Shown: positions 13,912 through 52,610, counted from the stretch's first letter. The stretch is 64,000 nt of DNA from Croceimicrobium sp. (GCA_965658965.1 CBFHVV010000006.1:367-64366); one strand, 5' to 3'. Notes: a model not told the origin generated them from the sequence alone. Numbers and translations: made by a program.

Positions 13912-14068
13912 GCAGTTTTGATTGGAGCTCAATTTAAGAAGAATTGACGGATTGAAATTGGCTAATGAGTTAGGTCACACCATGCTTGAGCGAGCGTTTT
14001 TTAGGACTGATGATTTTTCTGTGCTTGAAGTAAAACAATTACCCGACGAGTGCAAATAGATTTTTGCT

Positions 14069-18565: not shown

Positions 18566-18574
18566 AACTAACAG

Positions 18575-20559: not shown

Positions 20560-20564
20560 ACAGT

Positions 20565-23833: not shown

Positions 23834-23897
23834 ACTGCTAAAACTAGTAGCACCGACCTTTCTTATAAGGTCGGTAACTTTACTTATCAGATATTTT

Positions 23898-25148: not shown

Positions 25149-25167
25149 TTTATTTTTTCGTTTAGTT

Positions 25168-26524: not shown

Positions 26525-26779
26525 CTAGTTGTAGACGGGAAGAATTTCAGATCTGATAAAGCTCCTTCCTTTCCCGGATTTTAAATATTTTTCATCCTTT
26601 AAGGCTTCTGATTTTTGATCATGGAAGCGCACTGCAATCACCATCCAGGGACGATATTTAATGGTAAAACCTTTTTTTGCAAGACTTTGATGCGAATGAA
26701 ACCTAGTTATATGGTCAGCAGTGAAACCGATATAGAGGCGGTCATGTTTTTGAGAGTATAAAAGATAGCTTACAAACAT
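26525..26779 (-). CDS. Small GIY-YIG (URI) domain nuclease-family protein, copy 1
   Basis: 84 aa: VSYLLYS...RLYIGFTAD (GIY...YIG), R..H.H, and DEKYLKSGKGRSF (a conserved Glu followed by a basic tail). Confidence 0.8.
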   Translation of the reverse strand: MFVSYLLYSQKHDRLYIGFTADHITRFHSHQSLAKKGFTIKYRPWMVIAVRFHDQKSEALKDEKYLKSGKGRSFIRSEILPVYN

Positions 26780-26837
26780 GATTATTTGATAATTAGGTTT
26801 TCAAGGTACCACTTTCGTCAATGAGAGTCTCTAAACG

Positions 26838-26872
26838 AAAAAAGTCCCGAAACTGATGCTTCGAGACTTTTC
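26838..26872 (-). terminator. Hairpin terminator, internal copy (G-U in minus-strand RNA)
   Basis: Same hairpin as 26431-26465 but cgGgac is changed to cgAgac on the plus strand. Confidence 0.6.
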
Positions 26873-26876
26873 TTAG

Positions 26877-26931
26877 TAGCGGGGGCAGGACTCGAACCTA
26901 GGTCCGCCTCTGGCGGATAAGAGCCCAAGGC
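26877..26931 (-). pseudogene. Decayed 3' two-thirds of tRNA-fMet (fragment b)
   Basis: Differs from fragment a at 1 of 55 nt. Confidence 0.75.
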
Positions 26932-27186
26932 CTAGTTGTAGATGGGAAGAATTTCAGATCTGATAAAGCTCCTTCCTTTTCCAGATTTTAAATATTTTTC
27001 ATCCTTTAAGACGTCTGATTTTTGATCATGGAAGCGCACAGCGATGACCATCCAGGGACGATATTTAATGGTAAAACCTTTTTTTGCAAGTCTTTGATGC
27101 GAATGAAACCTAGTTATAAGGTCAGCAGTGAAACCGATATAGAGGCGGTCATGTTTCTGAGAGTATAAAACATAGCTTACAAACAC
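26932..27186 (-). CDS. Small GIY-YIG (URI) domain nuclease-family protein, copy 2 (GTG start)
   Basis: 84 aa with 6 aa differences from copy 1. The start codon reads GTG (cac on the plus strand at 27184-27186). Confidence 0.75.
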   Translation of the reverse strand: MFVSYVLYSQKHDRLYIGFTADLITRFHSHQRLAKKGFTIKYRPWMVIAVRFHDQKSDVLKDEKYLKSGKGRSFIRSEILPIYN

Positions 27187-27271: not shown

Positions 27272-27275
27272 TTAG

Positions 27276-27348
<73 letters not shown>

Positions 27349-27352
27349 ATGT

Positions 27353-27389
27353 GGGCGGCAAATATATAAGCATTTCTGAAAGTGAGCAA
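27353..27389 (-). promoter_or_regulatory. tRNA-fMet promoter (-33 TTG, -7 TATATTTG, GC-rich discriminator)
   Basis: Minus strand: gcTTGctcactttcagaaatgcttaTATATTTGCCGCCCacat followed by tRNA +1. The spacer is 20 nt. Confidence 0.6.
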
Positions 27390-27420
27390 GCTTTTATGCT
27401 TTTTCTTGTATTTTCACGCA

Positions 27421-35829: not shown

Positions 35830-36264
35830 TTAATTACGGATGCGAATGACCACTCCGTCAAAAGTACAGCGGTATTCTACTAAGCTTGTAATAGCATCAG
35901 TAGAAGGCGAGCCATCAAATAATAGATACTGCTCTCCTCCGCAGGGACATTCTGCAAAAGTGCGATCATCGCTAATTTCTAAAACCGAACATTCTTCTCG
36001 ATAATGCGTAGGACAGGCACGGTCGAAAGCACCAAAATCGTTTTGGGTATTATTGTTAAAGCGACGGTAAACCAATAAACCACGATAACCTCCGCTGTGT
36101 GTAATGGCGCCACCAATATTTAAAAGCTCAAGGCTAGATGGGTTATCTATGTAGATGTATTCATCAAATGAAACAATGGGGAAGTCTCGGTTATTATTTT
36201 CTTTGCAAGCTGAGGCAACCAAAAATAAAGCTAGAGTCCATAAGAATAACAAGTGCCTTTTCAT
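35830..36264 (-). CDS. Hypothetical Cys-rich lipoprotein
   Basis: Lipobox LVASAC. A degenerate Rieske-like spacing CPTH...CPCGG is present, but I cannot confirm it as a Rieske domain. Confidence 0.4.
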   Translation of the reverse strand: MKRHLLFLWTLALFLVASACKENNNRDFPIVSFDEYIYIDNPSSLELLNIGGAITHSGGYRGLLVYRRFNNNTQNDFGAFDRACPTHYREECSVLEISDDRTFAECPCGGEQYLLFDGSPSTDAITSLVEYRCTFDGVVIRIRN

Positions 36265-36490
36265 AGTGCAAATTTGCTCATATTAGGAATAAAACTGCCG
36301 ATTTCGGCAAAAATTGTTACTAGAAACAAGCAAATCTTAAATTTATGTTAACACTTAGAGGTTCATTATCAATAATTTATTAATAAACCCAAGATTTCTA
36401 GGAAATTAGGCATTGCTGCCTAGGCCTATTTTATGTTATATTTACGGCCTTTTAAAATTCAGGAGAGATCTTAATAACCGAATAATTAGT

Positions 36491-39400
36491 ATGGGAAAGA
36501 AACTACTCTTACTGCTTTTCACCACTTTAGCTTCAGTTGCTTTTGCGCAACAGCGCCCCGGATCGCTCCGTGGGACTGTAACCGACAAGGGAACAGGTGA
36601 AACAGTACCTTTTGCAAATGTTGTCATCAAAGACGCCTCAGGAACAGTTTTGACGGGAGGAACTACCGATTTTGACGGGAAGTACAATATCAACCCGGTT
36701 AGTCCAGGAACCTACCTAGTGGAGGCTTCTTTTACTGGTTTAGCCACTGTAAAGGTGGAAGGCGTTGTTATCTCGCCAAGTTCTATCACCATTCAAAATT
36801 TTGATATGCGTGAAGAAAGTGCCATGCTGGGTGAAGTCGTAATTAAATACGAAGCTCCTTTAATTGACGCGACCAAAACGAGCAAGATAACCACCCAAGA
36901 GGACATTCAGAATATGGCCGTGCGTGATATTACTTCTGTTGCTGGACAAGCGGCTGGTGTAACTCAAGATGCGAACGGTAATACGAACATTCGTGGTGCT
37001 CGTGGTGAAGGAACCGTTTACTTTATTGATGGGGTTAAAATGCGCGGTAGCGTAAACATTCCGCAAGCGGCCATCGCTCAAACCGAGGTAATTACTGGTG
37101 GTTTACCGGCACAGTACGGTGATGCCATTGGTGGTGTTATTAATACTACCACGCGCGGTCCTTCGGGCGAATGGTTTGGCAGTGCGGAGATTTTAACATC
37201 TATGCCTTTTAAATATTTAACGCGTGGAGACGGAAGCCCAATCCTTGACGGACAAAACTATAACTTAGCAGCCTTTACTATAGGTGGTCCTCTTTATAAA
37301 AATGATAAAGGTCAATCTATTGTAGGTTTCTTATTTAGCTCTGAGTTCTTATATATAGAGGAGCCCAGACCAGTGCCGTCTAGTATTCCTTATATCAAAC
37401 TAGATGAAGATGTTTTAGCATCTTTACAGCAAACACCAATTTTGGTTGATCCAAACGGAACTGCAATTAACTTGGCTTCTGAATTTGTTACTGAAGATGA
37501 TTTAAGCAATATCTGGCAAAGACCTAATTCTTACGCTAATGATGTTCGTTTAACTGGTAATGTTCAGATTAAAACTTCTCGCAATACCAATTTAACAGTA
37601 GGTGGCCGTTTAGTTTACTCTAATGATCGTGCCGCCAACTACGGTAGTCATGTTTTCAATTATGAAAACAATATGAATACTATTAATTCCGATTGGCAAG
37701 CCTATGTTCGCTTCCAGCAGACATTTGATAATGATACTTCTGCCAACTCCCTTATTAAAAACGCGTATTACAACATCCAAGTAGATTATACTCGTGACTT
37801 TAATGAAACGAAGGACGTTAACCACGGTAAGAATTTCTTTAACTACGGATATACTGGTAAATACGATGTGGCCACTCGCCCAGCATACGTGCCAGGGACT
37901 GATACCACTTTAGGCTTAGATGGCCTACTTTATGTTGGTGATTTCGATTTAGGAGTTGACTATACTCCAGGTGGTGTTAATCCAAACCGTGATAATTACA
38001 TTACTGAGTTTTTTAATATCGCAGCTTCTAATCCTGGTATCAATTCACGTACTATCGACGAGATTTTGGGATACGGATTACCAATTAATGGTTTTAACCC
38101 TCGTAGCGTTTACGGCTTGTGGACCAATACGGGTACTCAATTAGGAGGATATAATGTTAGCCGTAACAGTCAGTTTAGAGTTACTGCCTCTACTAACTTT
38201 GATATTGGAGATCACTCTCTTATCGCTGGTTTTGAGTATGAGCAAAGAATTGACCGCGCCTATGGACTTGGTGCACAAGGACTTTGGACTAGAATGCGTT
38301 TATTACAAAACCAACCTAACTCTCAGTTAGACTTATCAAATCCGCTTCCAGTTTATGATGGATTTGGAAACTTCCAAGACACCATTAATTATAACTATGC
38401 TTATAATGAGCAGGATGCTAGTCAATTCTCAGAAAGAATTAGAGCAGCTTTAGGTTTAGACCCACGTGGTGTCGATCAAATCAACATAGATAACTTAGAT
38501 CCTTCTATGTTCTCTTTGGATATGTTCTCGGCTGATGAGCTTATTAACCCGAACGGTGCCGCTAGCGTAAGCTATTATGGTTACGATTATACTGGAGAAG
38601 TTAGTTCGGAAAATTCTTCAATCGCCGACTTCTTCCAAGCGCGCGATGAGAATGGAAGATATTTACGTCCCGTAGCCGCATTCCAGCCTATATATATCGC
38701 TGGTTATGTTCAGGATCAATTCGCATTCCGCGACCTTACTTTTAACGTAGGGGTTAGGGTCGATCGTTTTGACTTAAACCAGAGTGTATTAAAAGATCCT
38801 TATGTATTATACCCAGCTTACAATGTAGGTGACCTTTCAGGTTCTCCCCTTTCGGAAGATGCGGTTTCTAATATTCCTGCCGGTATTGGTCAAGACTACG
38901 CTGTATATGTAAGTAGTTTCGATTACGGAAGTGCAAGTATTGTAGGTTACCGTAATGGCGATCAGTTTTTCGATGCTTCTGGTAGCCCGATAACTGACCC
39001 AGGTATTCTTTCGGATGCAGCGGGTGGTGGTATCAAGCCATTCTTAGTAACTCCTCCTGGAGATGAAACTACTGTTGGTAGTGATATTCCTGCTGAGTCT
39101 TTTGTTGACTACGAGCCACAAACGGTTGTAATGCCGCGTATTGCCTTTAACTTCCCTATTACGGATGAGGCTATTTTTATCGCACACTACGATGTGTTAG
39201 CGCAGCGTCCTACTACTGGCTTTTCACGCTTAGATCCATTCGACTACTTGAATCTTACCAACTTGAGAAATGGAGGGATTTTGAATAACCCTAACTTATT
39301 ACCTCAAAAAACAACGGAATACGAATTAGCATTTAAGCAAGCTCTTACTAAAAAGTCGGCTCTTAAAATCGCTGCCTTCTACCGTGAGTTACGCGACTTA

Positions 39401-40174
39401 TTACAAGCGGTGAATTACCCAGAAGCTTATCCTATTACTTATATAGCTTACGGTAACCGTGACTTTGGAACTGTAAAAGGCTTCCAGTTAGAATATGAAA
39501 TGCGTCGTACCAACAATATCAAAATTGATGCGAACTATACCTTACAGTTTGCTAATGGTACTGGTTCCAGTGCTACTACTGGTGCCAACTTGGCTAGAGC
39601 AGGTGCCGCTTCATTAAGAACGTTATTGCCATTTGACTACGATAACCGTCACCAGATTTTGGTACGTCTTGACTGGAGATATGGTAGAGGTAATCAGTAC
39701 AATGGCCCAAAAATTAACGGCAAAAAAATTCTTGAAAACTTTGGTATAAACGTTACCACAAGTGCTTTGTCTGGTCGCCCTTATACACGTCGTGATCGTG
39801 CTTACGCTGTTACAGCGGCTGCATCTTCTAGTGCGCAAACTGAAGGACAGATAAACGGTGCTCGCTTACCATGGCAAGTAACCTTCGATGTACGAATGAA
39901 CAAAAGCTTTATGTTAGATGCGCGCGGTCGTAAGACTATCGATGTCTACATTCAGGTTTTAAATGCTCTGAACACCATGAACGTTGTAAACGTTTATCCT
40001 TTTACTGGCAGTCCTGATGATGACGGTTTCTTAGCCTCTCAAGCTGGACAAGCCCAGACTCAAGGTCAAATAAGCGAACAAGCTTTTATTGACTTGTATA
40101 ACCGTAGAATGGTTAGTCCATTTAATGTATCTCTGCCTCGTCGCTTCCGTTTGGGAGTTGCGTATAATTTTTAA
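36491..40174 (+). CDS. Oar-like giant TonB-dependent outer-membrane barrel (CarboxypepD_reg + plug + about 1000-aa barrel)
   Basis: The ATG at 36491 gives MGKKLLLLLFTTLASVAFAQQ. CarboxypepD_reg-like GSLRGTVTDKGTGETVPFANVVIKD...GTYLVEASFTG. Plug NIRGARGEGTVYFIDGVKMRG...EVITGGLPAQYGDAIGGVINTTTRG. The protein ends in ...RFRLGVAYNF. Confidence 0.85.
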   Translation: MGKKLLLLLFTTLASVAFAQQRPGSLRGTVTDKGTGETVPFANVVIKDASGTVLTGGTTDFDGKYNINPVSPGTYLVEASFTGLATVKVEGVVISPSSITIQNFDMREESAMLGEVVIKYEAPLIDATKTSKITTQEDIQNMAVRDITSVAGQAAGVTQDANGNTNIRGARGEGTVYFIDGVKMRGSVNIPQAAIAQTEVITGGLPAQYGDAIGGVINTTTRGPSGEWFGSAEILTSMPFKYLTRGDGSPILDGQNYNLAAFTIGGPLYKNDKGQSIVGFLFSSEFLYIEEPRPVPSSIPYIKLDEDVLASLQQTPILVDPNGTAINLASEFVTEDDLSNIWQRPNSYANDVRLTGNVQIKTSRNTNLTVGGRLVYSNDRAANYGSHVFNYENNMNTINSDWQAYVRFQQTFDNDTSANSLIKNAYYNIQVDYTRDFNETKDVNHGKNFFNYGYTGKYDVATRPAYVPGTDTTLGLDGLLYVGDFDLGVDYTPGGVNPNRDNYITEFFNIAASNPGINSRTIDEILGYGLPINGFNPRSVYGLWTNTGTQLGGYNVSRNSQFRVTASTNFDIGDHSLIAGFEYEQRIDRAYGLGAQGLWTRMRLLQNQPNSQLDLSNPLPVYDGFGNFQDTINYNYAYNEQDASQFSERIRAALGLDPRGVDQINIDNLDPSMFSLDMFSADELINPNGAASVSYYGYDYTGEVSSENSSIADFFQARDENGRYLRPVAAFQPIYIAGYVQDQFAFRDLTFNVGVRVDRFDLNQSVLKDPYVLYPAYNVGDLSGSPLSEDAVSNIPAGIGQDYAVYVSSFDYGSASIVGYRNGDQFFDASGSPITDPGILSDAAGGGIKPFLVTPPGDETTVGSDIPAESFVDYEPQTVVMPRIAFNFPITDEAIFIAHYDVLAQRPTTGFSRLDPFDYLNLTNLRNGGILNNPNLLPQKTTEYELAFKQALTKKSALKIAAFYRELRDLLQAVNYPEAYPITYIAYGNRDFGTVKGFQLEYEMRRTNNIKIDANYTLQFANGTGSSATTGANLARAGAASLRTLLPFDYDNRHQILVRLDWRYGRGNQYNGPKINGKKILENFGINVTTSALSGRPYTRRDRAYAVTAAASSSAQTEGQINGARLPWQVTFDVRMNKSFMLDARGRKTIDVYIQVLNALNTMNVVNVYPFTGSPDDDGFLASQAGQAQTQGQISEQAFIDLYNRRMVSPFNVSLPRRFRLGVAYNF

Positions 40175-40192
40175 ATTTAAAGAAGTAACTGC

Positions 40193-43100
40193 ATGAAATT
40201 CAGAAACTTTTTAGCATACTCTTTAGTATTAAGCCTAGGCTTTGGAGGCCTAAGCGCTAAAGAAAAGCCGCATGGCAATAACAACAAAAAGTCGGCTCTA
40301 GAGGCATTGGCGGAAGGTTGTGCCCCGGCAACAGCACAAACTGACTTAAATATTAACAACGTAAGAGCGCGTATCCTTGGTGGTGGCGACATGTGGTGGG
40401 ATTTAAATGATGCCCAGTATGAAGTGCCAAAAGGAAGTAATAAGCACTCTATGTTTGCTGGTGCCCTTTGGTTGGGTGGTTACGATGATGCCGATCAATT
40501 AAAGCTTGCTGCAATGACCTATCGTCAAAGCGGTGTGGATTATTGGCCTGGACCTCTTGATGATGATGCTTCAATTACAGAAGAAACTTGTCAAGAGTAT
40601 GACCAGCAATGGACGGTTTATCGTTCGGAGGTGGAAACTCATAAAGCGTGGATCGACTGTAAAGAAGACCCAACTTGTGATACTGAAGCACGCTTCCCAG
40701 GATATGCTGGTAATATTCCAGAAAGCATTATCGAATGGCCAGGAAATGGCATCAACGGAAGTTTACCCTATAAATTAGCCCCTTTTGGTGAATCTGATAC
40801 TAACGGTATCCCTGGCTTTTACGAGTATGAGTGGGATTACCCAGGTTACGACTTTACCCGTGAGGCTGATTGTCAAGATAAGGAAGTAGACTTACTTTAT
40901 GGTGATCAAACTATCTGGTGGGTATATAATGATAAAGGAAATATACATACTGAAACTAATGCCGCTTCTTTAGGTTTTGAAATTCGTGCACAAGCATTTG
41001 CCTTTACTGCAAATGATGAGGTAAACAACATGACTTTCAATAACTATCGTATCATCAACCGTTCTACTTTCCGTTTAAGAGATACTTATTTTGGTACTTG
41101 GTTTGACGCGGATTTAGGAAACCCTTTTGATGATATTATCGGTTCTGATATCGCTCGTGGTTTAGGTTATGTTTACAATGGTGATACAGACGACGAAGGA
41201 GCCTTAGGCTATGGAGCAAATCCTCCAGCCGTAGGTTTTGACTTCTTCCAAGGTCCATTCGCAGATTATGGCGATGGTCTAGATAATGATCGTGATGGTT
41301 GTGTTGATGGGGTTCGTATTGACGGAATTTGTGTGGCTGAAGATGAGTCAATCGGTCTTAATGAGCGTATCATTATGTCGGGTTTCATGTATTACAACAA
41401 CTCTAATAACTTTAATGGCCCTCCGGGAACAACCGATCCGAATACAGCTCAAGAGTTTTATAACTTATTGAATAGCCTTTGGAAAGATGGACGTTCTTTA
41501 GTGGTAGAGAGTCCAGCAGGAAAAGGTAATCCCGGCAACGGTGATGGCTATAATAATAACGATCCTTCCTTGGAGGTAACAAAATTTGCCTACCCAGGAA
41601 ATTCATTTGACACTACTGGTTTTACTGAACCTACTTCGGACAGAGATTGGTTTGAATCTCCTAATAATCAGGCGGATAAGCGTGGACTTCACTGTGCTGG
41701 TCCTTTCTCACTTGCTCCTGGAGCGCTAAACTTTATTACTACTGGTGCGGTGTGGGCTAGAAACTTTACTAGTCAAGACCTTTTTGCCTCTGTAAATGAC
41801 GTGATTGTAGCAGACGATAAGGCTCAGCAATTATTCGACAACTGTTTTCAAGTATTAGATGGACCTAATGCACCAGATGTAGAGATTGTTGAATTGGACC
41901 GTGAATTATTAATTAACTTCATAGATCCATTCGGTGAAGAGACTATCGGATATGTTCAAACTGATCCGAGAATTCCACCAGATCCAAACTGGACGGCAAC
42001 ACAGATTGACAGTGCAAGAAGAGCACTATATTTTGATTATGTTTTCGAAGGATTCCAGATTTTCCAAGTGGCTAATGCAGATGTAGGTGTTGATGAATTA
42101 TACGATGTTTCACAATCTCGCTTAATCGCACAGTCTGACTTGAAAAATGGCATTGGTCAATTGGTGAATTATTTTGAATCACCAGACTTATTGGGTAATC
42201 CATTAACTCCGCAAGACATGACCATTGCTGCTACCGATAACGGAATTAAGTTAAGCTACCGTGTTTTAGAAGATGCTTTCGCAGAAGGTGGTCGTGGTTT
42301 AGTTAATCATAAAGAATACTATTTCTATGTTTTGGCATATGCTCAAAACGACTATTTGACCTTTGTGCCAGGTATTAGTGGCGATAACGCTAATGGACAA
42401 AAAACTCCATATCTAGCGGGACGTAGAAATATTGGGGAAAACTCTAAACCTTATTTAGGAATACCAAGTAAGATAGAAAGCCGTAATAATGGTACTACTC
42501 TGAATAGTGAATGGGGTGATTTGATAGAAATTACACGCATCGCTGGTAAAGGAAATGGAACGAATTATTTACGTGTTAATACGGAAACCGAAGAAAGAAT
42601 TATAAGTGAGGGTTCTTCTCAGGAAGTTACTTACTTATCTGGCTTCGCTCCTGTTGAAATTAAGGTGGTAGATCCTTATGAAATTGGGGATGGCTCGTAC
42701 CAATTGCGTTTTACAGATCTTAATAATACTCGCTCTTGGGAATTGATTGACTTGCAGAGAGATACTGTGATAGATGAAAGTGAGCAAGGGATAGACTATT
42801 CTGCTGAGCAGATAGTCGTTAGCAATATAACTGGTGATCCGCTTGGTTTTAGCATTACAATTAATGAGGCAATTGCTCCAGGTTTAGAGCGTGAAGGTTC
42901 GCTTAATAATGGTGTGATCGGTGGAACTATAATTTATGAGGATGCAACCAAGCCATGGCTATCAGGTTTAGCAGATTCGGATGCCAATAATCCTACAAAC
43001 TGGATATTAGCGGGGTCTAACGACATCACAGACGATGAGAATTTACCAGCTTACTATTATAATGATTACTCTGCTGGTGATAATAATGTAGATCCACAAG

Positions 43101-44284
43101 GAGAGTTCGAAACTATATTAGGTGGAACTTGGGGACCAGTTGCATTAGCGAGTAATGTTCCTTTAGCCGGAACACCATCTGGCTCACCAGTTGGTGATCA
43201 AAGCCCTGGTTATCCTTTACGTGATGGTAACAATTTTAACCGCATGTATCCGATTAGTGATTTACCGAATATTGATGTGGTAATTTCACCAGACCCAGAA
43301 AAGTGGTCACGTGTACCTGTTTTAGAAATGGGTAACCTAGCAGCAGCTAACGATGGAGGTGTAAGCACTTTCCGCTTACGCTCTGGCGCTAGTCTTAATA
43401 AGACTTCAACAGGAGAATTAGTACCTGATCCATCTAGTACTGGCTGGAGTTATTTCCCAGGTTACGCTTACAATGTTGAAACAGGAAGTCGTCTTAACCT
43501 AGTTATTGCTGAAAACTCTTGGTTAAAGAGTGAGAATGGTGATGATATGCTGTGGAATCCTACTGCAAACCTTACCCAAAAACTGGGAACTTTCGCAGCG
43601 GGTGGAATGCACGTTATTTATGTCCTAGCAGATTCCGGTACTGTTAATAATCAAACAATTGACCTTACTTACCAAGGTGATGCCATTGATGATTATCCAT
43701 TGAAAGCTGAGTTTGAGAATTTCGGTAGCTCGCTAACTAGAACTTCAGTTTGGGGTTCGATGACTTGGTGTTCTGTTGGAATGCTTTCTAGTAATCAGTT
43801 TGCTTTCGACGATTACCGCGATATTCCTACTGAAGCTAGAGTAGAGATCCGTGTTCAGAGTCCATTTGGAAGATCAAGTGATATGGAGAACAACGGAAAT
43901 CCTTTGTATGAATTCTCTATGGATGGCCTACAGTCGATTACCAATGACCTAGACGTTGCTAATTCAGCACTGGATCAAATACGTGTGGTTCCTAATCCTT
44001 ATTATGGCTCTTCAGGTTATGAAGATGGACAGTTAGATAATATTGTGAAGATTACTAACCTACCACCACGTTGTGAGATTAATATTTTCATGCCCAATGG
44101 TACTTTAGTAAGAACCATTAATAAGGATAACTCCCTAACTTTTACGGAGTGGGATCTTAAGAATGAGTTCAATGTACCGATCGCTAGTGGGATTTATTTA
44201 CTTCACATTGATGCTGGTGCGGCTGGACAGAAGGTTATTAAGTGGATGGGTAGCTTAAGACCTGTTGACCTTAACGCCTTTTAA
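40193..44284 (+). CDS. 1363-aa secreted protein of unknown function with T9SS-CTD/FlgD-Ig-like C-terminal domain
   Basis: Signal peptide MKFRNFLAYSLVLSLGFGGLSA. A Ca-binding-like GDGLDNDRDGCVDG motif. C-terminal IRVVPNPYYG...ITNLPPRCEINIFMPNGTLVRTI...WDLKNEFNVPIASGIYLLHID... Confidence 0.6.
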   Translation: MKFRNFLAYSLVLSLGFGGLSAKEKPHGNNNKKSALEALAEGCAPATAQTDLNINNVRARILGGGDMWWDLNDAQYEVPKGSNKHSMFAGALWLGGYDDADQLKLAAMTYRQSGVDYWPGPLDDDASITEETCQEYDQQWTVYRSEVETHKAWIDCKEDPTCDTEARFPGYAGNIPESIIEWPGNGINGSLPYKLAPFGESDTNGIPGFYEYEWDYPGYDFTREADCQDKEVDLLYGDQTIWWVYNDKGNIHTETNAASLGFEIRAQAFAFTANDEVNNMTFNNYRIINRSTFRLRDTYFGTWFDADLGNPFDDIIGSDIARGLGYVYNGDTDDEGALGYGANPPAVGFDFFQGPFADYGDGLDNDRDGCVDGVRIDGICVAEDESIGLNERIIMSGFMYYNNSNNFNGPPGTTDPNTAQEFYNLLNSLWKDGRSLVVESPAGKGNPGNGDGYNNNDPSLEVTKFAYPGNSFDTTGFTEPTSDRDWFESPNNQADKRGLHCAGPFSLAPGALNFITTGAVWARNFTSQDLFASVNDVIVADDKAQQLFDNCFQVLDGPNAPDVEIVELDRELLINFIDPFGEETIGYVQTDPRIPPDPNWTATQIDSARRALYFDYVFEGFQIFQVANADVGVDELYDVSQSRLIAQSDLKNGIGQLVNYFESPDLLGNPLTPQDMTIAATDNGIKLSYRVLEDAFAEGGRGLVNHKEYYFYVLAYAQNDYLTFVPGISGDNANGQKTPYLAGRRNIGENSKPYLGIPSKIESRNNGTTLNSEWGDLIEITRIAGKGNGTNYLRVNTETEERIISEGSSQEVTYLSGFAPVEIKVVDPYEIGDGSYQLRFTDLNNTRSWELIDLQRDTVIDESEQGIDYSAEQIVVSNITGDPLGFSITINEAIAPGLEREGSLNNGVIGGTIIYEDATKPWLSGLADSDANNPTNWILAGSNDITDDENLPAYYYNDYSAGDNNVDPQGEFETILGGTWGPVALASNVPLAGTPSGSPVGDQSPGYPLRDGNNFNRMYPISDLPNIDVVISPDPEKWSRVPVLEMGNLAAANDGGVSTFRLRSGASLNKTSTGELVPDPSSTGWSYFPGYAYNVETGSRLNLVIAENSWLKSENGDDMLWNPTANLTQKLGTFAAGGMHVIYVLADSGTVNNQTIDLTYQGDAIDDYPLKAEFENFGSSLTRTSVWGSMTWCSVGMLSSNQFAFDDYRDIPTEARVEIRVQSPFGRSSDMENNGNPLYEFSMDGLQSITNDLDVANSALDQIRVVPNPYYGSSGYEDGQLDNIVKITNLPPRCEINIFMPNGTLVRTINKDNSLTFTEWDLKNEFNVPIASGIYLLHIDAGAAGQKVIKWMGSLRPVDLNAF

Positions 44285-44308
44285 GAACGAAATAACGTGA
44301 ACAAACAC

Positions 44309-45349
44309 ATGAGATACTTCAACAAAATTGCAATTACCGCCTGCTTATTAGCCACTGGCTTGAGCGTAGAGGCAGGTAACCCACAAAGAGCTGGTTCGGC
44401 AGGAGCACCTGAGTTATTAATTAACCCCTGGGCTAGAGCTTCTGGTTGGGGAGGTGTTAATGTCGCTGGTGTAACCGGTGTACAATCATCCTTTATTAAT
44501 ATTGCGGGTATAGCTTCTACGGAAGGAACCGAGGTTTCTTTTACCAACACCCAGTGGATGGTAGGCGCAGGCATTAATATCAATGCTGCAGGCTTTAATC
44601 AGGCAGTAGGGTCTAATGGAGTGCTTTCGGCTAATTTCGTGTCTTTTGACTACGGTAGCTGGGAAAGGACTACAATCGACAATCCGGATGGAGGGATAGG
44701 TGAAATTAGTCCTTCTACAGCTATAATTGGCCTAGGATATGCACAACGCTTTATCAAGTCGATTCGTGGTGGGGTAAATGTTAAGATTTACACTACTAGT
44801 ATGGTGGACATGAGCGTTACTTCAGCTAGCGTTGATGCGGGTGTGCAGTACGTTACTGGTAAGAGAGAACAAGTGAAGTTTGGTATTACCTTGAGAAATA
44901 TTGGACCAGCTGCTCGGTATGATGGAGAAGGTCAGTCTGTTACTTTAGTAGTGCCACAAGGAGGTTATGCTCAAGAGTTCAGCGAAAGAAGTGAAGCCTT
45001 CGAATTACCGACGACACTTTCCATTGGTGGTAGCTATGATTTTGAGTTTGAACAGCAAAGACTAACCGTCGCGGGATCATTTCAATCAAATTCTTTTGAA
45101 AAAGACTTGTATACAGCAGGAGTTGAGTACAGTTTTAAAGAGTTGTTAAGCTTTAGAGCGGGTTATACCCTTTGGGATAACCGTGATTTCGAAGTTACCA
45201 CGACTGTCTTTACGGGCTTCAGTGCTGGTATGTCGCTTGACTTACCCCTTAGCAAGAATAATGATAACATGTTCGGTCTAGACTATTCTTACCGTAGTAC
45301 ATCATTTTTCGACGGTGTACATAGCATAGGAGTATCGGTATCTTTATAG
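44309..45349 (+). CDS. PorV/PorQ-family outer-membrane beta-barrel
   Basis: Signal peptide (the track start at 44297 is GTG; an ATG lies at 44309). The N-terminal GSAGAPELLINPWARASGWGGVNVAG matches the PorV-family (F/L)L.I.P.AR..GMGG motif. The rest shows an alternating beta-strand pattern. Confidence 0.65.
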   Translation: MRYFNKIAITACLLATGLSVEAGNPQRAGSAGAPELLINPWARASGWGGVNVAGVTGVQSSFINIAGIASTEGTEVSFTNTQWMVGAGININAAGFNQAVGSNGVLSANFVSFDYGSWERTTIDNPDGGIGEISPSTAIIGLGYAQRFIKSIRGGVNVKIYTTSMVDMSVTSASVDAGVQYVTGKREQVKFGITLRNIGPAARYDGEGQSVTLVVPQGGYAQEFSERSEAFELPTTLSIGGSYDFEFEQQRLTVAGSFQSNSFEKDLYTAGVEYSFKELLSFRAGYTLWDNRDFEVTTTVFTGFSAGMSLDLPLSKNNDNMFGLDYSYRSTSFFDGVHSIGVSVSL

Positions 45350-45390
45350 TATTCGATCAGAATCCAATATTTTATATATTTGCATTAGGA

Positions 45391-45417
45391 AAAGACCTCT
45401 CTGAGGTCTTTTTTTTG
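45391..45417 (+). terminator. Intrinsic terminator (end of the OM module, within the greA upstream region)
   Basis: aaaaGACCTCtctGAGGTCtttttttt. Confidence 0.8.
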
Positions 45418-45437
45418 TTTGCTAAAACTCACACAAA

Positions 45438-45911
45438 ATGGCGATAAACTATTATTCTCCCGAAGGTCTTGAAAGACTTAAAAAAGAGCTAGAACATATG
45501 AAGTCGGTGGAGCGTCCCCGTATTTCAAACCAAATTGCAGAAGCGAGGGATAAAGGTGATCTTTCGGAAAATGCTGAATATGATGCTGCTAAAGAGGCTC
45601 AGGGTCTTTTGGAAATGAAGATAAGTAAGCTAGAGGACAGCTTATCCAACGCACGCCTGCTGGATAGCTCAAAGGTAGACACATCTAAAGTGATGGTGCT
45701 CTCTAAGGTGGTTATAAAGAATAGTAAAAATGGTGCTACCATGACTTATCGTTTGGTAAGTGAGAATGAAGCGGATTTGAAAAATGCTAAAATTTCTATT
45801 AATAGTCCGATTGGTAAAGGCCTAGTTGGAAAGAAGGTGGGCGATATTGCGGAAATTACTACTCCGGCAGGCTTGATGAGTTTTGAGATTATTGAAGTAA
45901 GCATGGATTAA
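45438..45911 (+). CDS. greA: Transcription elongation factor GreA
   Basis: 157 aa with GDLSENAEYDAAKE and a C-terminal FKBP-like domain. Confidence 0.93.
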   Translation: MAINYYSPEGLERLKKELEHMKSVERPRISNQIAEARDKGDLSENAEYDAAKEAQGLLEMKISKLEDSLSNARLLDSSKVDTSKVMVLSKVVIKNSKNGATMTYRLVSENEADLKNAKISINSPIGKGLVGKKVGDIAEITTPAGLMSFEIIEVSMD

Positions 45912-45912
45912 T

Positions 45913-46308
45913 ATGGCTTCAATCTTTTCTAAAATAGTTGCTGGAGAAATTCCGAGTTATAAAATTGCTGAAACTGATAATTGCTATGCATTTCTAGATA
46001 TCATGCCACTGCATGGAGGGCATACTTTAGTGATTCCTAAAAAGGAGGTGGATTACCTGTTCGACCTGCCAGATGAGCAGTACCAAGAATTGATGCTGTT
46101 TTCAAAGAAAGTTGCGCATGCCGTTGGAAAAGCAATTCCCTGCAAAAGAGTGGGTGTTGCGGTACTAGGTTTAGAGGTACCACACGCTCATATTCATTTG
46201 ATACCGATAAATGCAGTAAGTGATATCGACTTTAGCAGAAAGAAGCTGGAGTTTACTTCTACACAAATGGAAGAATATGCTGCCTCCATTCGTTCTAAGC
46301 TTAATTAA
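45913..46308 (+). CDS. HIT-family hydrolase
   Basis: Histidine triad HAHIHLIP. Confidence 0.85.
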   Translation: MASIFSKIVAGEIPSYKIAETDNCYAFLDIMPLHGGHTLVIPKKEVDYLFDLPDEQYQELMLFSKKVAHAVGKAIPCKRVGVAVLGLEVPHAHIHLIPINAVSDIDFSRKKLEFTSTQMEEYAASIRSKLN

Positions 46309-49351: not shown

Positions 49352-50233
49352 TTAAGGCTGATATCGCAAACCATTGCTATTCGTTCCTACCACGCTAAAA
49401 TATCCAAAGGCATAATCCTCCACATCGCCCTTGCGGTGAATATTGCCTATTACTAAGGCCGGAGGCGCGTCAAATGGGGATCCTACTTGTTGTTGGCTGT
49501 TCACTAAAGTTAGAAAGGCTTCAAAGTCTGCCGAGATACTTTCAATGCGAACCCTAAGGCTATCGGGATCTTCGCCCATTTCAGGTTCTTCAAAAGGACC
49601 ATATATAGAAACAGCAGGGAATTCACTACCACCGAAATAAGCACCATCTACTCCAAAGTCATCAAAAATGATAATTTCTCTGGCAAAGACCGAGTCGTTG
49701 AGAGTTCGTTTTATGCGCAGAAAATTTTTAGTGTCGGGTATATCTCCAAAATACATTAAAGCATATTCGCCCTCTCTAAATGCACGCGGGTTAGTAGTTC
49801 TATTTAGGGTTTCTTGTTTTAAGCTATCTAATTCTGGGCAGGCTCTTAAGGTATCTGCTGCAGAAACCCATTCTCCCAGAAAGTTAGAAGGGTAGTCGCC
49901 ATTAATTTCGATTTCTAGGTGGTAGATGTTCCCTATCGAACCGCTGAAATCGCTAGAATAATAGCCTTTTCGGTTACTGCTTTCACTTAGCACGGCCATT
50001 TCGGTATTGCCTTCCCAAATACTTACGCGTGCGCCACTAATATAGTTAACCTCTTCGTTGGAAAAGTATTCAGAAGTGGTACTGATTTTAACAAAGGCGC
50101 TATCTTTATTAGAGACTTGACCACTGATTACCAATTCAATTTCACCGGTAGGCACATCAATATCGATGGGATCTTGACAGGATACTACAATTAAGGCCAA
50201 GAAGATTAAGCTGATTTTAGATAGTATCTTCAT
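49352..50233 (-). CDS. DUF4249-like lipoprotein (partner of the upstream TBDR)
   Basis: Lipobox ALIVVSC. Its size and its position directly after a CarboxypepD_reg-type TBDR fit the DUF4249 pairing common in Bacteroidota. Confidence 0.55.
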   Translation of the reverse strand: MKILSKISLIFLALIVVSCQDPIDIDVPTGEIELVISGQVSNKDSAFVKISTTSEYFSNEEVNYISGARVSIWEGNTEMAVLSESSNRKGYYSSDFSGSIGNIYHLEIEINGDYPSNFLGEWVSAADTLRACPELDSLKQETLNRTTNPRAFREGEYALMYFGDIPDTKNFLRIKRTLNDSVFAREIIIFDDFGVDGAYFGGSEFPAVSIYGPFEEPEMGEDPDSLRVRIESISADFEAFLTLVNSQQQVGSPFDAPPALVIGNIHRKGDVEDYAFGYFSVVGTNSNGLRYQP

Positions 50234-50234
50234 T

Positions 50235-52610
50235 TTAAAAATTAAAATTCCAGGTTACAGAAGGTATGATAGTGCCAAAAATGGCAAGCTGCATAGCACG
50301 GGTATTAAAGCTTGGAGCCATTGCACCGTCGGGGGTAGGTGCTTGCTCGAAGTAAACCGAGTAGGCATTCCGACGAGCATAAACGTTATATAGACCGATC
50401 GACCACGAACTGTAAAACTTCTTATTAGGCTCTTTTTTAGGAGTGTAATTAGCGGATAGATCTAAACGGTGGTAATCGGGAATACGCAGGCTATTTCGGC
50501 TTCGATAAATGGGCACACTGTAATCTTCAAAAACATATCTCCCTTCAGGAGGAGTAATAGCCCTTCCTGTTTGGTAGGTGAAGTTCATACCTAAATCCCA
50601 TTTTTCTGTGAGCTGGTAGTTAAGGACAAAGGAAATATCGTGACGCTTATCGTAGTTGGCAGCATACCATTCTCCGGCGTTTATGGCCAAGCGAGGATCG
50701 TCATTCTCTACCTTTAATTCCGTTTTAGAAAGGGTGTAGCTCAGCCAACCACTAAGGCGCCCTTCGCGCTTACGCAGATAAAATTCTAAACCATAAGAGC
50801 GACCAATACCAGAAAGAATCTCCGTTTCAATGGTCTCATTAAAAATTAAGTCTGCGCCATTGCGATAATCCACAATATTGTTAAAGTCCTTGTAATAGCC
50901 TTCCAAGGAAACCTCGTAGCGGTTATTATCAAAGTTTTGAAAGTAACCTGCAGCCACTTGATTTACCGTAGCTGGCTTAATATAACGTCCTGCAGGGCGG
51001 TACAAATCTACGGGAGTGGGAGACGACGTATTGCTAATGAGATGAATGTATTGTCTTGTTCGATTGTAACTGGTTTTAATACTGCGCTGGTCATCTATGC
51101 GGTAATTAGCAGAAAATCTTGGCTCTAAGCCTTCAAGTCCATTGTAAGCCTGAACAATTTCGCCTGCTTGATAGTCCCTAACGCTAAGAACTTCATCGGC
51201 ATTGGGTAGTTCTGGGTTAAGGTAGCTTCTAACTTTTTGTGCACCTAAATTGTAAAAAGAGGAATAGCGTAAACCATATTGTAAGGTCCATCGGGTACCT
51301 AGGTCTAATTCCTGGCTAAAGTAAATAGAAGGCTCCAAGGCAAACTCTTCTTGTAGAGCTAACTCTACATTACCCGTAATCTCGCCTGGTTTTAGGCGGT
51401 AGTACACTCCCTCCACACCAAACTCAATTTCATTCTTACTACTCAAGTAGTAGTTATATTGATTCTTGAAGTGGTAATCTTGAATGGTTGATTTTAAGCG
51501 GAAGTTAAACTCCGCATCTTCGGCCGTACCTAAGGTATAAGTGTAGTCGCTAAAAACAAAAGTGAAATTGGAAAATAGCTTATCGCTAAAAAGGTGATTC
51601 CATCGCAATGACCCGGTGGCATTCCCCCAATCAAAACCGAATAAATCATTAATTTCGAAAACATCACGACCAAAATAACCGCTTAGGTACAGTCGATCCT
51701 TATCACTAAAAATATAATTGAGTTTAGTGTTTAAGTCGTAAAAGTAAAGGGTGTTTTGGCTAATGGTTGAATCTGGACTTAGTCCTAAAAATATATCTGC
51801 ATAAGAGCGTCGAGCCGCCACCATGAAAGCAGATTTTTCTTTCTGGATTGGTCCTTCTAGCAGTAATCTACTAGATAGTAATCCGATTCCTCCAGTTCCA
51901 CTAAACTCCTTATTGTTACCGTCCTTCTGACGAACATCTACCACAGAGCTTAATCTGCCGCCGTAGCGAGCAGGAATACCTCCCTTATACAGCTTGACAT
52001 CTTTGACCGCGTCGGCATTGAAAATTGAGAAAAAGCCAAAAAGGTGAGAAGAGTTGTATACCGGTGCTTCATCAAGTAGAATTAAATTCTGGTCGCTGTT
52101 TCCGCCTCTCACATTAAAGCCATTGGCCGCTTCACCGATGGTGCTAATTCCTGGTAAAAGCGTGAGACTTCTTATAATATCAACTTCTCCTAAAAGGGCC
52201 GGCATTTTTTTAACGTCTTTCATGTCGAGCTCTACCACACTCATTTCAACACTGCTAACATTTTGGTCTTGCCTTTCTGCGGTAACGGTTACTTCATTTA
52301 ACTGAGTTGTATTTTCACTTAATTCAATATTCATTTTTAGATCTTGCTGTAGATCTATTTTAAGGGTTTTTGTTTGGTAACCGATATACTGTACAGAAAC
52401 CTCGTAAACTCTCGGCTTAAGGCTCAGTGAGTAATAGCCATAAAGATTGGTGCTAGTTCCTTCTCCTAATTCGGGAATAACTACATTTACACCAATCAGT
52501 TCTTCACCAGTTTTTGCGTCCCTAATGTAGCCACTAAATGTAAACTGAGTGTTTTGAGAAAAAGCAGAGAGACTGAAGCAGAGGAGGAGCAGGTTTATTA
52601 AAAATCGCAT
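50235..52610 (-). CDS. TonB-dependent receptor with carboxypeptidase-regulatory-like N-domain
   Basis: FSGYIRDAKTGEELIGVNVVI..., a plug (LPGISTIGEAANGFNVRGGNSDQNLILLDEAPVYN), and an ending ...VTWNFNF. Confidence 0.9.
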   Translation of the reverse strand: MRFLINLLLLCFSLSAFSQNTQFTFSGYIRDAKTGEELIGVNVVIPELGEGTSTNLYGYYSLSLKPRVYEVSVQYIGYQTKTLKIDLQQDLKMNIELSENTTQLNEVTVTAERQDQNVSSVEMSVVELDMKDVKKMPALLGEVDIIRSLTLLPGISTIGEAANGFNVRGGNSDQNLILLDEAPVYNSSHLFGFFSIFNADAVKDVKLYKGGIPARYGGRLSSVVDVRQKDGNNKEFSGTGGIGLLSSRLLLEGPIQKEKSAFMVAARRSYADIFLGLSPDSTISQNTLYFYDLNTKLNYIFSDKDRLYLSGYFGRDVFEINDLFGFDWGNATGSLRWNHLFSDKLFSNFTFVFSDYTYTLGTAEDAEFNFRLKSTIQDYHFKNQYNYYLSSKNEIEFGVEGVYYRLKPGEITGNVELALQEEFALEPSIYFSQELDLGTRWTLQYGLRYSSFYNLGAQKVRSYLNPELPNADEVLSVRDYQAGEIVQAYNGLEGLEPRFSANYRIDDQRSIKTSYNRTRQYIHLISNTSSPTPVDLYRPAGRYIKPATVNQVAAGYFQNFDNNRYEVSLEGYYKDFNNIVDYRNGADLIFNETIETEILSGIGRSYGLEFYLRKREGRLSGWLSYTLSKTELKVENDDPRLAINAGEWYAANYDKRHDISFVLNYQLTEKWDLGMNFTYQTGRAITPPEGRYVFEDYSVPIYRSRNSLRIPDYHRLDLSANYTPKKEPNKKFYSSWSIGLYNVYARRNAYSVYFEQAPTPDGAMAPSFNTRAMQLAIFGTIIPSVTWNFNF

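Follow-up and report, generated by a model that had tools for sequence, protein, structure and literature searches.

The analysed window, 64,000 nucleotides (64 kb) of DNA from Croceimicrobium sp., a marine member of the Flavobacteriales, contains a trio of adjacent genes that lie throughout on the plus strand and encode a TonB-dependent transporter (TBDT), a large secreted protein and an outer-membrane barrel. The features of the locus are as follows, with positions counted from the first letter of the window and gene limits taken from the ORF list.

35830-36264, minus strand: divergent gene for a 144-aa lipoprotein whose fold is of the Rieske type and whose cluster ligands are degenerate (profile match to Rieske proteins, 8hn2, E 1e-4)
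36265-36490, plus strand: intergenic region between gene 1 and the divergent 144-aa gene, with invariant blocks and a putative -7-like element, TATATTTA, ~45 nt before the ATG
36491-40174, plus strand: gene 1, a 1227-aa TonB-dependent transporter with signal peptide, NTE, TonB-box-like strand, plug and barrel
40193-44284, plus strand: gene 2, a 1363-aa secreted protein (150 kDa) with a Sec signal at aa 1-22 and no lipobox
43982-44248, plus strand: gene 2 C-terminal domain (CTD), aa 1264-1352, a beta-sandwich of T9SS type that most resembles the CTDs of PorZ and PorU
44249-44281, plus strand: gene 2 C-terminal tail of 11 residues, GSLRPVDLNAF, with family consensus KWFGxxRPxDLxxF
44297-45349, plus strand: gene 3, a 350-aa outer-membrane barrel of the PorV/PorQ family, with signal peptide aa 1-26 and mature N-terminus GNPQRAGSAGAPELLINPWARASGWGG
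45387-45424, plus strand: intrinsic terminator 3' of gene 3, a 13-bp hairpin, AAAAGACCTC-TCT-GAGGTCTTTT, followed by a T-run (terminator scan and sequence reading)

The first-pass annotation had described a co-directional trio with short gaps and a closing terminator, and this description held. Genes 1 and 2 are separated by 18 nt and genes 2 and 3 by 12 nt, or by 24 nt if gene 3 starts at the alternative ATG at 44309 instead of the GTG at 44297 that yields 350 aa. The gene 1 ORF is open from 36413, with the ATG at 36491 giving the 1227-aa protein. In the terminator scan the hairpin with its T-run spans 45387-45415, and nothing comparable was found within the three-gene block. The trio has the structure of one operon with a single closing terminator, and all three are genuine genes; full-length homologues number in the thousands for each.

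Upstream of gene 1, alignment with three related loci (L003, L004 and L005) revealed long invariant blocks, and the position of TATATTTA suggests a Bacteroidota -7-like promoter element. This region matched no Rfam family and therefore holds no known riboswitch; neither a riboswitch nor a regulator pointing to a nutrient was found for the trio. No RNA runs contained the trio sequence, and the DNA runs that did were marine plankton metagenomes. By tblastn, at least 41 loci have the 144-aa gene upstream of gene 1, and its product matched nothing in Pfam or NCBIfam. It is a conserved neighbour and a possible member of the module. Elsewhere in the same 64-kb window, a HmuY-like protein with a T9SS CTD adjoins a TBDT. 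A neighbouring 791-aa TBDT matches TIGR04056 at its N-terminus only, at 80 bits against a cut-off of 368.

Gene 1 is a TonB-dependent transporter. The signal peptide (aa 1-19) ends in AFA, followed by QQ, and Pfam identified the NTE as CarboxypepD_reg (PF13620, aa 25-106, 58.4 bits) and the plug as PF07715 (aa 125-216, nucleotides 36863-37138, 41.7 bits against a cut-off of 23.9). The plug was matched in 16 of 16 orthologues, and a profile of the orthologues searched against the PDB matched both TBDT plugs (5fr8, CirA, PirA) and SusC/TBDT NTE domains. Between NTE and plug, residues 114-120 (GEVVIKY, 36830-36850) form a TonB-box-like strand as judged by sequence pattern, whose consensus, xVVxY..PLID, is conserved in the 16 orthologues. 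The presumed barrel spans ~1000-1010 aa, and the protein ends in GVAYNF with a terminal F. The window protein has no match to the barrel family PF00593 at E<=0.01 and no other barrel-family match in Pfam, and 9 of the 16 orthologues match PF00593 (best 2.2e-15). NCBIfam gave no match to TIGR04056 (SusC/RagA). The first-pass reading of signal peptide, CarboxypepD_reg domain and plug was thus borne out.

The secreted protein encoded by gene 2 has a mostly-beta, multidomain body of ~1230 aa (aa ~41-1250). Within it, the acidic loop DNDRDGCVDG at residues 364-373 reads as a Ca-binding-like motif. Pfam returned no match for the window protein, and among 36 diverse family members both Pfam and NCBIfam matched tail domains only. 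The window sequence likewise found no relative in the PDB. An AF2 model of residues 1-1200 was obtained with a pLDDT of 85.9 and a pTM of 0.74. Foldseek comparison of this model with the PDB gave weak beta-sandwich similarity only, to dextran dextrinase and GH94/GH116/GH63-type domains, with TM values of 0.1-0.2 and rmsd >10 Å that make the matches unusable; against viral structures it gave FN3-type noise. The family is large, with 6770 clusters at 50% identity (E<=1e-3), occurs in at least several hundred species-level genomes, and the names of its cluster members carry no information. BamG/BamH of the Bacteroidota BAM complex was ruled out as an identity for gene 2, as BamH-K are lipoproteins (PMC12578637) and gene 2 has no lipobox.

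The C-terminus of gene 2 had been annotated as a T9SS/FlgD-Ig-type sorting domain. From the single sequence this call is weak, because only the C-terminal part of PorZ and a sub-cut-off TIGR04183 were matched. NCBIfam PorZ (NF052228) aligned to residues 1244-1339 at E 2.5e-6, with 26 bits against a cut-off of 260, over profile positions 654-740 of 757; gene 2 is not a full-length PorZ, as the rest of NF052228 was unmatched and no propeller appeared among the fold matches of the body. TIGR04183 scored 15.9 bits, below its cut-off of 23, and neither PF18962 nor the PorU sortase (NF033707), with its C25-type peptidase body, matched the window protein. The call is upheld by the family and by the fold. 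Across the 36 members, PorZ was matched by 21, TIGR04183 by 20 (E<=0.01), PorU by six and PF18962 by one; the PorU matches are weak and presumably fall in the CTD. The type B CTD model TIGR04131 matched neither the window protein nor family members. Among PDB sequences the family profile matched the CTDs of PorZ (E 0.26) and PorU (E 0.61), both weakly, and nothing else. An AF2 model of residues 900-1363 (pLDDT 88.5) ends in a predicted seven-strand Ig-like beta-sandwich resembling solved T9SS CTDs, with PorZ (5m11, E 1.1e-5) as the best Foldseek match, followed by PorU (6za2, E 1.2e-3), and with further matches to the SprA-bound substrate CTD 8glk_D and the RgpB CTD 7pq4.

The CTD is also the most conserved segment of gene 2, with a consensus frequency of 0.65 and a pairwise identity of 52% versus 32% for the middle domains. 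Conservation of this kind is unlike that of a disposable signal. An HMM of this CTD matched only ORFs of the gene 2 family in 1.82 Mb of fetched loci, and none of the window's three canonical type A cargo proteins was among its matches. We regard the CTD as a private subclass of unusual conservation, whose nearest likeness is with the retained domains of PorZ and PorU. In the tail that follows, R1356 and D1359 are nearly invariant and the terminal F is present in most sampled tails, others ending in Y, L or T. Despite this conservation, the tail is predicted to be disordered in the monomer (pLDDT 45-77); it is a candidate docking peptide.

Gene 3 was confirmed as a PorV-family barrel by its match to PorV_fam (NF033709), with 141 bits against a cut-off of 90 and residues 35-349 covering profile positions 2-325 of 326. 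The more specific "PorQ-like" label fared less well; the PorQ score (NF033711, 77.7 bits) is marginally above that for PorV (NF033710, 58.7 bits), and both are far below the equivalog cut-offs of 220 and 250. All 22 of 22 orthologues match PorV_fam with the same sub-cut-off pattern for PorV and PorQ. The only PDB sequence match was F. johnsoniae PorV (6h3i_F). Pfam PorP_SprF matched part of the protein only, at 22.3 bits, exactly its cut-off, and the PorP family TIGR03519 was matched weakly in 7 of the 22 orthologues. The NCBIfam family "PorV2" (NF052325, cut-off 325 bits) was rejected as an identity for gene 3. The window protein had no match at E<=0.001, and the best of the 22 orthologues (E 1e-16) is far below the cut-off; the label is an NCBIfam name only, its mention in the literature being a citation artefact. 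We would place gene 3 in a third branch of the PorV/PorQ family.

Owenweeksia hongkongensis carries the trio and also a canonical T9SS set, as determined with sequences taken from the supplement of PMC7323717. Its true PorV (Oweho_1767) scores 460 bits against the cut-off of 250, its true PorQ (Oweho_1573) 395 bits against 220, and its true PorZ 290 bits against 260; this PorQ is 23% identical to gene 3. PorU and PorF of the organism are listed in the same study (PMC7323717). Given that O. hongkongensis has the trio plus separate PorV, PorU, PorQ, PorZ and PorF, gene 3 is a third paralogue. The concern that gene 3 might be a genome's sole PorV is thereby answered for this organism. No canonical PorV occurs in the 1.82 Mb of fetched loci. 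The PorF homologue of O. hongkongensis (AEV32276, 480 N-terminal residues available) resembles gene 1 in the plug core only (E 0.002).

Conservation of the gene order in related genomes, on which the first-pass annotation had made its module depend, was found in approximately 70 of 81 related loci from several Bacteroidota orders, at identities down to 35%, and in 3 of 3 loci found from the gene 3 side. The three genes occur together across hundreds of Bacteroidota species; one locus (L069) has genes 1 and 2 without gene 3. The outer flanks are mostly kept in close relatives only, with greA and HIT persisting and ruvC and the 144-aa gene doing so less often. The trio is single-copy, slowly evolving and fixed beside greA-HIT, which would suit a housekeeping envelope machine better than a PUL-type diversifying nutrient system. 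In tandem duplications (L018, L022, L045, L066 and L074) the extra gene 2 copy remains next to gene 3. Lone gene 2 paralogues also exist that retain the same CTD and have no adjoining transporter or barrel; their neighbours are unrelated (helicase, AlaDH, TPR, DHDPS, a Kelch T9SS cargo, M28 peptidase and GT2).

Retention of CTDs on cognate barrels has precedent (PMC10202324), as do adjacent genes for a cargo and its barrel in SprB-SprF and PG1035-PorP (PMC9143113). The closest likeness for the protein pair is the attachment complex of P. gingivalis, PorZ-PorQ and PorU-PorV, in which a large surface protein has a T9SS beta-sandwich CTD retained on a 14-strand barrel of the PorV/PorQ family; for the trio, this retention is predicted. 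The differences are that the gene 2 body is neither the double beta-propeller of PorZ nor the C25 peptidase of PorU, that gene 3 fails both equivalog cut-offs and coexists with true PorV, PorQ, PorU and PorZ, and that, unlike these pairs, the trio genes are adjacent and in an operon with a TBDT. SprB-SprF and PG1035-PorP share with the trio a barrel gene directly 3' of the cargo gene and a private CTD subclass, and there the cargo is anchored at the surface by its own FadL-type barrel (PMC9143113). However, the gene 2 CTD is not type B, and gene 3 belongs to the PorV/PorQ family. A twin-cysteine C-terminal tail links SprF to GldK (PMC12635249); the mature gene 3 protein contains no cysteine and therefore has no such tail.

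Gene 1 invites comparison with transporters that have surface partners. SusD- and HmuY-type surface proteins are the extracellular partners of other Bacteroidota transporters. SusC/SusD, RagA/RagB and HmuR/HmuY resemble the trio in that a Bacteroidota TBDT with NTE and TonB box (in gene 1 a candidate, the TonB-box-like strand) is encoded beside a partner that is surface-exposed or, for gene 2, predicted to be so. Gene 1 is not of the SusC/RagA family, however, and gene 2 is not a lipoprotein and lacks the SusD, HmuY or any other known fold; nor is the trio diversified as those systems are. Oar is needed for secretion of PopC in Myxococcus. The likeness of gene 1 to M. xanthus Oar is one of architecture alone, namely a CarboxypepD_reg NTE, a plug and a long barrel (PMC6434023), and this NTE is common to most Bacteroidetes TBDTs (PMC6434023). 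PorF (PG0534) is another TBDT-like outer-membrane barrel functionally tied to the T9SS, at 92.3 kDa (PMC5445135) versus the 1227 aa of gene 1.

The proposal that genes 2 and 3 would form a dedicated cargo-anchor pair is well supported at the level of sequence, because the synteny is conserved, the CTD is private, conserved and PorZ/PorU-like, and gene 3 exists as a third paralogue in addition to true PorV and PorQ. As the main reading, to which we assign a probability of roughly 45%, the trio would be one operon that builds a single outer-membrane assembly, in which T9SS-exported gene 2 is docked on gene 3 and partners gene 1 in import. The gene 2 product would cross the inner membrane via Sec and be exported through its CTD by the ordinary T9SS of the cell. 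The CTD and its 11-residue tail would stay uncleaved, as for PorZ on PorQ and PorU on PorV, and would dock on gene 3 as a dedicated 14-strand barrel of the PorV/PorQ family, so that the 150-kDa protein is held at the cell surface. There it may work with gene 1, a TonB-energised transporter with very large predicted extracellular loops, as the extracellular partner that captures or processes the substrate imported by gene 1. This role would parallel that of SusD- and HmuY-type proteins, yet with delivery by the T9SS instead of as a lipoprotein. We infer T9SS export, CTD retention, docking of gene 2 on gene 3, contact between genes 1 and 2, and the direction of transport; as the body of gene 2 has no recognisable binding or catalytic fold, its "substrate capture" role is by analogy only.

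The direction of transport bears on the first-pass suggestion of an Oar-like role for gene 1 in export, whereby TonB energy would move or release the gene 2 product or another protein outward, by analogy with the need for Oar in PopC secretion. Gene 1 has the Oar domain order of NTE, plug and long barrel (PMC6434023) and is tightly linked to the secreted gene 2. This order is, however, the dominant TBDT architecture in Bacteroidetes, where most such proteins are importers (PMC6434023), and the suggestion had no other basis. Gene 1 keeps the TonB-box-like strand and plug as importers do, and nothing points to export; it lacks a barrel-family match, and its orthologues match the generic TBDT barrel family only. 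Gene 2 appears to carry its own T9SS export signal, which would make a second exporter unneeded. We therefore consider export or assembly by gene 1 very improbable, and TonB-powered uptake with gene 2 as surface partner seems likelier.

There are two other readings. In one, the trio would be an accessory or attachment module of the T9SS, with gene 2 on gene 3 like PorZ on PorQ, serving other cargo, for example in glycolipid anchor handling or cargo processing, and with gene 1 assisting as a TBDT-like barrel in the way that PorF/PG0534 assists gingipain secretion. Its appeal is that the nearest CTDs, those of PorZ and PorU, belong to components of the machine and not to cargo, that the trio is a single-copy, slowly evolving set in a housekeeping neighbourhood, that the TBDT-like PG0534 is needed for T9SS function in P. 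gingivalis (PMC5445135), and that the body of gene 2 has weak Foldseek similarity to beta-sandwich domains of carbohydrate-active enzymes. Yet the canonical set of PorU, PorV, PorQ, PorZ and PorF is already complete in O. hongkongensis, and gene 1 shares only the plug core with its PorF. Moreover, the model T9SS families are not among the trio genomes in the best 80 of at least 597 matches; if the trio is absent from them, it cannot be a core part of the T9SS. This reading is unlikely. In the other, no stable complex would form, and gene 3 would carry gene 2 only transiently, receiving it from the SprA translocon as PorV receives type A cargo, the product being released or attached elsewhere and gene 1 being linked by ancient gene order only. 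PorV-family barrels do act as shuttles (PMC10994853, PMC9143113), a large part of the surrounding neighbourhood (greA, HIT, ruvC) is also conserved by descent, and lone gene 2 paralogues have the same CTD although no barrel is encoded nearby. Against this, the CTD and tail of gene 2 are more conserved than the remainder, the gaps within the trio are operon-like, duplicated gene 2 copies stay beside gene 3, and the trio persists where flanks other than greA-HIT have decayed. A purely transient carrier is thus rather improbable, and the docked assembly with an importing gene 1 is the reading we prefer.

The trio has no earlier characterisation. The gene 2 family is among the larger protein families without a Pfam model or fold match, and its gene shares a fixed operon with those of two outer-membrane barrels. 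For the question of how some T9SS proteins keep their CTD and reach the correct barrel, the trio offers a natural case, since a private CTD with its conserved tail and a private barrel occur where PorV and PorQ are present as well; the determinants of CTD/barrel specificity could be readable from the paralogues. If gene 2 does work with gene 1, Bacteroidota would have two routes for the extracellular partners of TBDTs, lipoprotein export and T9SS delivery, with consequences for how abundant marine and freshwater Flavobacteriales, and Lentimicrobium-type anaerobes, capture nutrients. More tentatively, the trio may represent an ancient and hitherto unrecognised class of Bacteroidota outer-membrane machine, in which a TonB-energised barrel is permanently capped by the T9SS-delivered gene 2 with its novel fold, held through its private CTD and tail on its own PorV-family barrel. 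Such a machine would add a fourth pairing of CTD and barrel to PorU-PorV, PorZ-PorQ and type B-PorP/SprF. It would also be the first direct coupling of T9SS surface display to TonB-dependent transport, with a role that would be housekeeping, not niche-specific.

The first-pass annotation described a co-directional three-gene module, and its open reading frames, small gaps and closing terminator were all recovered. Gene 1 encodes a TonB-dependent transporter (TBDT), gene 2 a secreted protein and gene 3 a barrel of the PorV/PorQ family.

36491-40174, + strand: gene 1, ORF of 1227 aa from ATG; a TTG start farther upstream is possible
40193-44284, + strand: gene 2, ORF of 1363 aa
44297-45349, + strand: gene 3, ORF of 350 aa from GTG; alternative ATG at 44309
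45387-45415, then a T-run, + strand: intrinsic-terminator-like site just 3' of gene 3
35830-36264, - strand: 144-aa lipoprotein, divergent from gene 1

The genes are separated by 18 nt (genes 1 and 2) and 12 nt (genes 2 and 3; 24 nt counted from the gene 3 ATG), and the terminator was the sole good site on the + strand in the scan. G+C content and skew across the block were unremarkable. The window and relatives with only 76-84% protein identity share near-invariant DNA 5' of gene 1 (36330-36490), with the blocks TCTTAAAtTTATGTTAACACTTAgaGGTTCATT and TTATATTTACGGCC...AGGAGaGATC. No Rfam family matched this interval, which is probably promoter or operator sequence.

The neighborhood survey proposed in that annotation found the trio to be syntenic. 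With a strict script applied to tblastn results, the three genes occurred in the same order and on the same strand in 67 of 81 distinct related loci, and two further loci carried a trio split into several HSPs. When loci were instead reached from gene 3, all three distant barrels (from Lentimicrobium and others) lay in the arrangement gene 1-gene 2-gene 3-greA-HIT. A Vicingaceae genome also has the trio. In each of the three genes, identity to the window falls as low as 35-37%, and the values co-vary among the genes (r = 0.92-0.93). The trio is therefore of old origin and has been retained as a unit by vertical descent. General synteny does not by itself account for its persistence: the trio stays where most outer flanks decay, and the atpD, ribF, era and mscS flanks are kept in close relatives only. 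Of 82 related loci, 64 have greA and a HIT-family gene 3' of the trio, as in the window (45438-46308, + strand); for an envelope operon, so stable an association with housekeeping genes is unusual.

Gene 2 has paralogues. Five loci (L018, L022, L045, L066 and L074) carry a second copy beside the barrel, in the order gene 1-gene 2-gene 3-gene 2'. Lone gene 2 paralogues with unrelated neighbors occur in eight to nine loci (L029, L035, L038, L040, L047, L050, L064, L077 and L083), and the metagenome-assembled genome (MAG) holding L029 also has a trio (L019). In L069, genes 1 and 2 are followed by HlyD/AcrB genes in place of the barrel.

By tblastn, at least 41 loci have the divergent lipoprotein gene upstream of the trio. 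A 20-orthologue profile of its product resembled Rieske iron-sulfur proteins (8hn2, E 1e-4), with the second His ligand replaced (CPTH...CPCGG). In Lentimicrobium-type loci, gene 1 is immediately preceded by a co-directional gene of 152-168 aa (L085 293-784, L086 413-871, L087 316-822); as judged by eye, the L085 product has an N-terminus that is hydrophobic and a tail that is acidic, and is unlike the Rieske-like lipoprotein. Two further features lie elsewhere in the window.

26525-27186, - strand: two tandem near-identical 84-aa ORFs (MFVSYxLYSQKHDRLYIGFT...), GIY-YIG-like by eye, adjoining tRNA-Met (27275-27348)
27382-29460, + strand: 692-aa ORF with a signal-like N-terminus, its end overlapping the era start; no match in Pfam or NCBIfam

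Matched along its entire length, the gene 3 product scores 141 bits with the PorV/PorQ family model, above the cut-off of 90, and falls far under the equivalog cut-offs for PorQ (77.7 against 220) and PorV (58.7 against 250). All 22 orthologues tested gave the same score pattern, with the 'PorV2' model also far from reached. Clusters in the family number more than 4000 and bear the name 'PorV/PorQ family protein', and F. johnsoniae PorV was the sole sequence relative in the PDB. The possibility that this barrel is the only PorV of its genome was examined in Owenweeksia hongkongensis, which has the trio with the flanks of the window (L001) and for which the T9SS homologues of strain DSM 17368 are given in the supplement of PMC7323717. 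This genome encodes a separate PorV (Oweho_1767, 460 bits against 250), PorQ (Oweho_1573, 395 against 220) and PorZ (first 560 aa of Oweho_2451, 290 against 260), and PMC7323717 additionally names a PorU (Oweho_1768, adjoining PorV) and a PorF (AEV32276). Its gene 3 orthologue scored 139, 93 and 53 bits with the family, PorQ and PorV models. Gene 3 of the window is 23% identical to O. hongkongensis PorQ, and gene 1 has only the plug core in common with PorF. Gene 3 is a third paralogue beside PorV and PorQ. SprF has a twin-cysteine tail that links it to GldK (PMC12635249), whereas mature gene 3 contains no cysteine and therefore has no tail of this type.

The gene 2 product contains 11 cysteines and begins with a Sec signal that lacks a lipobox. 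Only two NCBIfam models were matched: PorZ, over its C-terminal 90 residues (E 2.5e-6), and TIGR04183, below threshold. An AF2 model of residues 900-1363 (119-sequence alignment, pLDDT 88.5) ended in a beta-sandwich at approximately residues 1264-1353, for which the top PDB structure matches were PorZ (5m11, E 1.1e-5) and PorU (6za2, E 1.2e-3), followed at lower rank by the CTD of a substrate trapped on SprA-PorV (8glk_D), FlgD and the RgpB CTD. The family profile searched against PDB sequences matched PorZ and PorU alone, both weakly. Among 36 diverse members, the PorZ model was matched by 21 (best 6e-12), TIGR04183 by 20 and PorU by six. The T9SS-type sorting tail initially proposed for gene 2 is thus upheld by family and fold, with TIGR04183 sub-threshold for the single protein.

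This C-terminal domain (CTD) is the best-conserved segment of gene 2, with a consensus frequency of 0.65 versus 0.55 in the N-terminal region and 0.40-0.48 in the middle; compared pairwise with distant members, the CTD is 52% identical versus 32% for the middle domains. Given the known variability of CTDs, a signal destined only for removal by cleavage would not be expected to be the best-conserved part of its protein. The domain carries an 11-residue extension (consensus KWFGxxRPxDLxxF), kept in trio-encoded and lone paralogues, for which the monomer model predicts disorder (pLDDT 45-77). An HMM of the CTD, run on 1.82 Mb comprising the loci and the window, matched gene 2 family ORFs only; the window's three canonical type A cargo proteins (Por_Secre_tail 34-57 bits), one of which is the 416-aa HmuY-like protein, were not matched.

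11833-13932, - strand: type A T9SS cargo, 699 aa, weak F510_1955 glycosylhydrolase match
61561-63870, - strand: type A T9SS cargo, 769 aa, fn3-MAM-PKD
16364-26118, - strand: haem/iron-type cluster of a PepSY_TM-flavodoxin-NAD reductase (733 aa), ankyrin-repeat protein (505 aa), HmuY-like protein (337 aa), TBDT (752 aa), second HmuY-like protein (416 aa; canonical T9SS CTD) and DUF6607 protein (316 aa)

The T9SS proteins known to retain their CTDs are PorU, bound to PorV, and PorZ, bound to PorQ (PMC10202324).

With the gene 2 protein itself as query, no Pfam domain and no PDB sequence relative was found. Residues 1-1200 gave a confident AF2 model (pLDDT 85.9, pTM 0.74) in which beta structure dominates; helical parts include an insert at residues 130-180 and a long helix at 532-549. 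Foldseek with this model gave only low-TM (0.1-0.2) likeness to beta-sandwich parts of GH15/GH94/GH116/GH63-type enzymes and, against viral models, FN3-like proteins. High conservation is seen in the first 520 residues and in a motif near residues 1085-1140 (SWFPGYA..ETG.RLN...E.S......G.DM.WNPT...GG.H). Among clusters at 90%, full-length homologues number more than 5500 and are named solely 'hypothetical' or 'T9SS type A sorting domain-containing protein', and an exhaustive HMMER scan returned 6770 clusters (50% identity) at E<=1e-3 and 1629 at E<=1e-30; the usual length is 1300-1500 aa. A scan of one genome per species gave at least 597 matches, of which the best 80 belonged to Flavobacteriales outside Flavobacteriaceae (labelled Owenweeksia, Croceimicrobium, Cryomorphaceae, Schleiferiaceae, Crocinitomicaceae and Fluviicola), Bacteroidales, Lentimicrobiaceae, unclassified Bacteroidia MAGs and a few MAGs labelled Chitinophaga, Chryseobacterium or Sphingomonadales. 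Among the matches listed, the closest relatives were L005 (84%), L003 (81%) and Croceimicrobium (76%; Owenweeksiaceae). The window sequence itself is present in marine plankton metagenomes.

Gene 1 appears to carry all importer hallmarks. A signal peptide ending in AFA, before QQ, is followed by a CarboxypepD_reg N-terminal extension (NTE; residues 25-106), a plug (125-216) and approximately 1010 further residues ending in F. A conserved beta-strand-like stretch, GEVVIKY (114-120), occupies the TonB-box position between NTE and plug. A profile of 16 orthologues matched the plugs of solved TBDTs in the PDB, together with NTE domains from a SusC homologue and one further TBDT; nine of the 16 reached the TBDT barrel family PF00593, and the SusC/RagA model did not match gene 1. 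Another transporter lies downstream in the window, in a pair also present in several related loci.

49352-52610, - strand: 791-aa TBDT (NTE and plug; SusC-like at the N-terminus only), then a DUF4249 protein

The first-pass annotation drew an analogy between gene 1 and Oar, the Myxococcus TBDT needed for protease export. The likeness is one of architecture (PMC6434023), and an Oar-type export role is not supported. The main rival is a T9SS-accessory role for the trio, with which its housekeeping-like conservation and the PorZ/PorU-like CTD of gene 2 are consistent. The best-supported model is that gene 2 would be delivered to the surface by the T9SS, held on gene 3 as its dedicated PorV-family barrel by a retained, private CTD and tail, and would work there with the co-encoded TBDT. 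Sequence, fold and comparative genomics support, to the extent that they can, the cargo-anchor pairing of genes 2 and 3 suggested earlier. For gene 1, import is favored, with gene 2 as a putative extracellular partner, because gene 1 appears to have all importer hallmarks, because Bacteroidota transporters of this architecture usually pair with surface partners and because the window holds a second case of a T9SS-CTD protein adjoining a TBDT, the HmuY-like one of the haem/iron-type cluster.

A literature search found no characterised system of this three-gene composition. The trio represents a CTD/barrel pairing joined to a TBDT, an arrangement that is uncharacterised and widespread.
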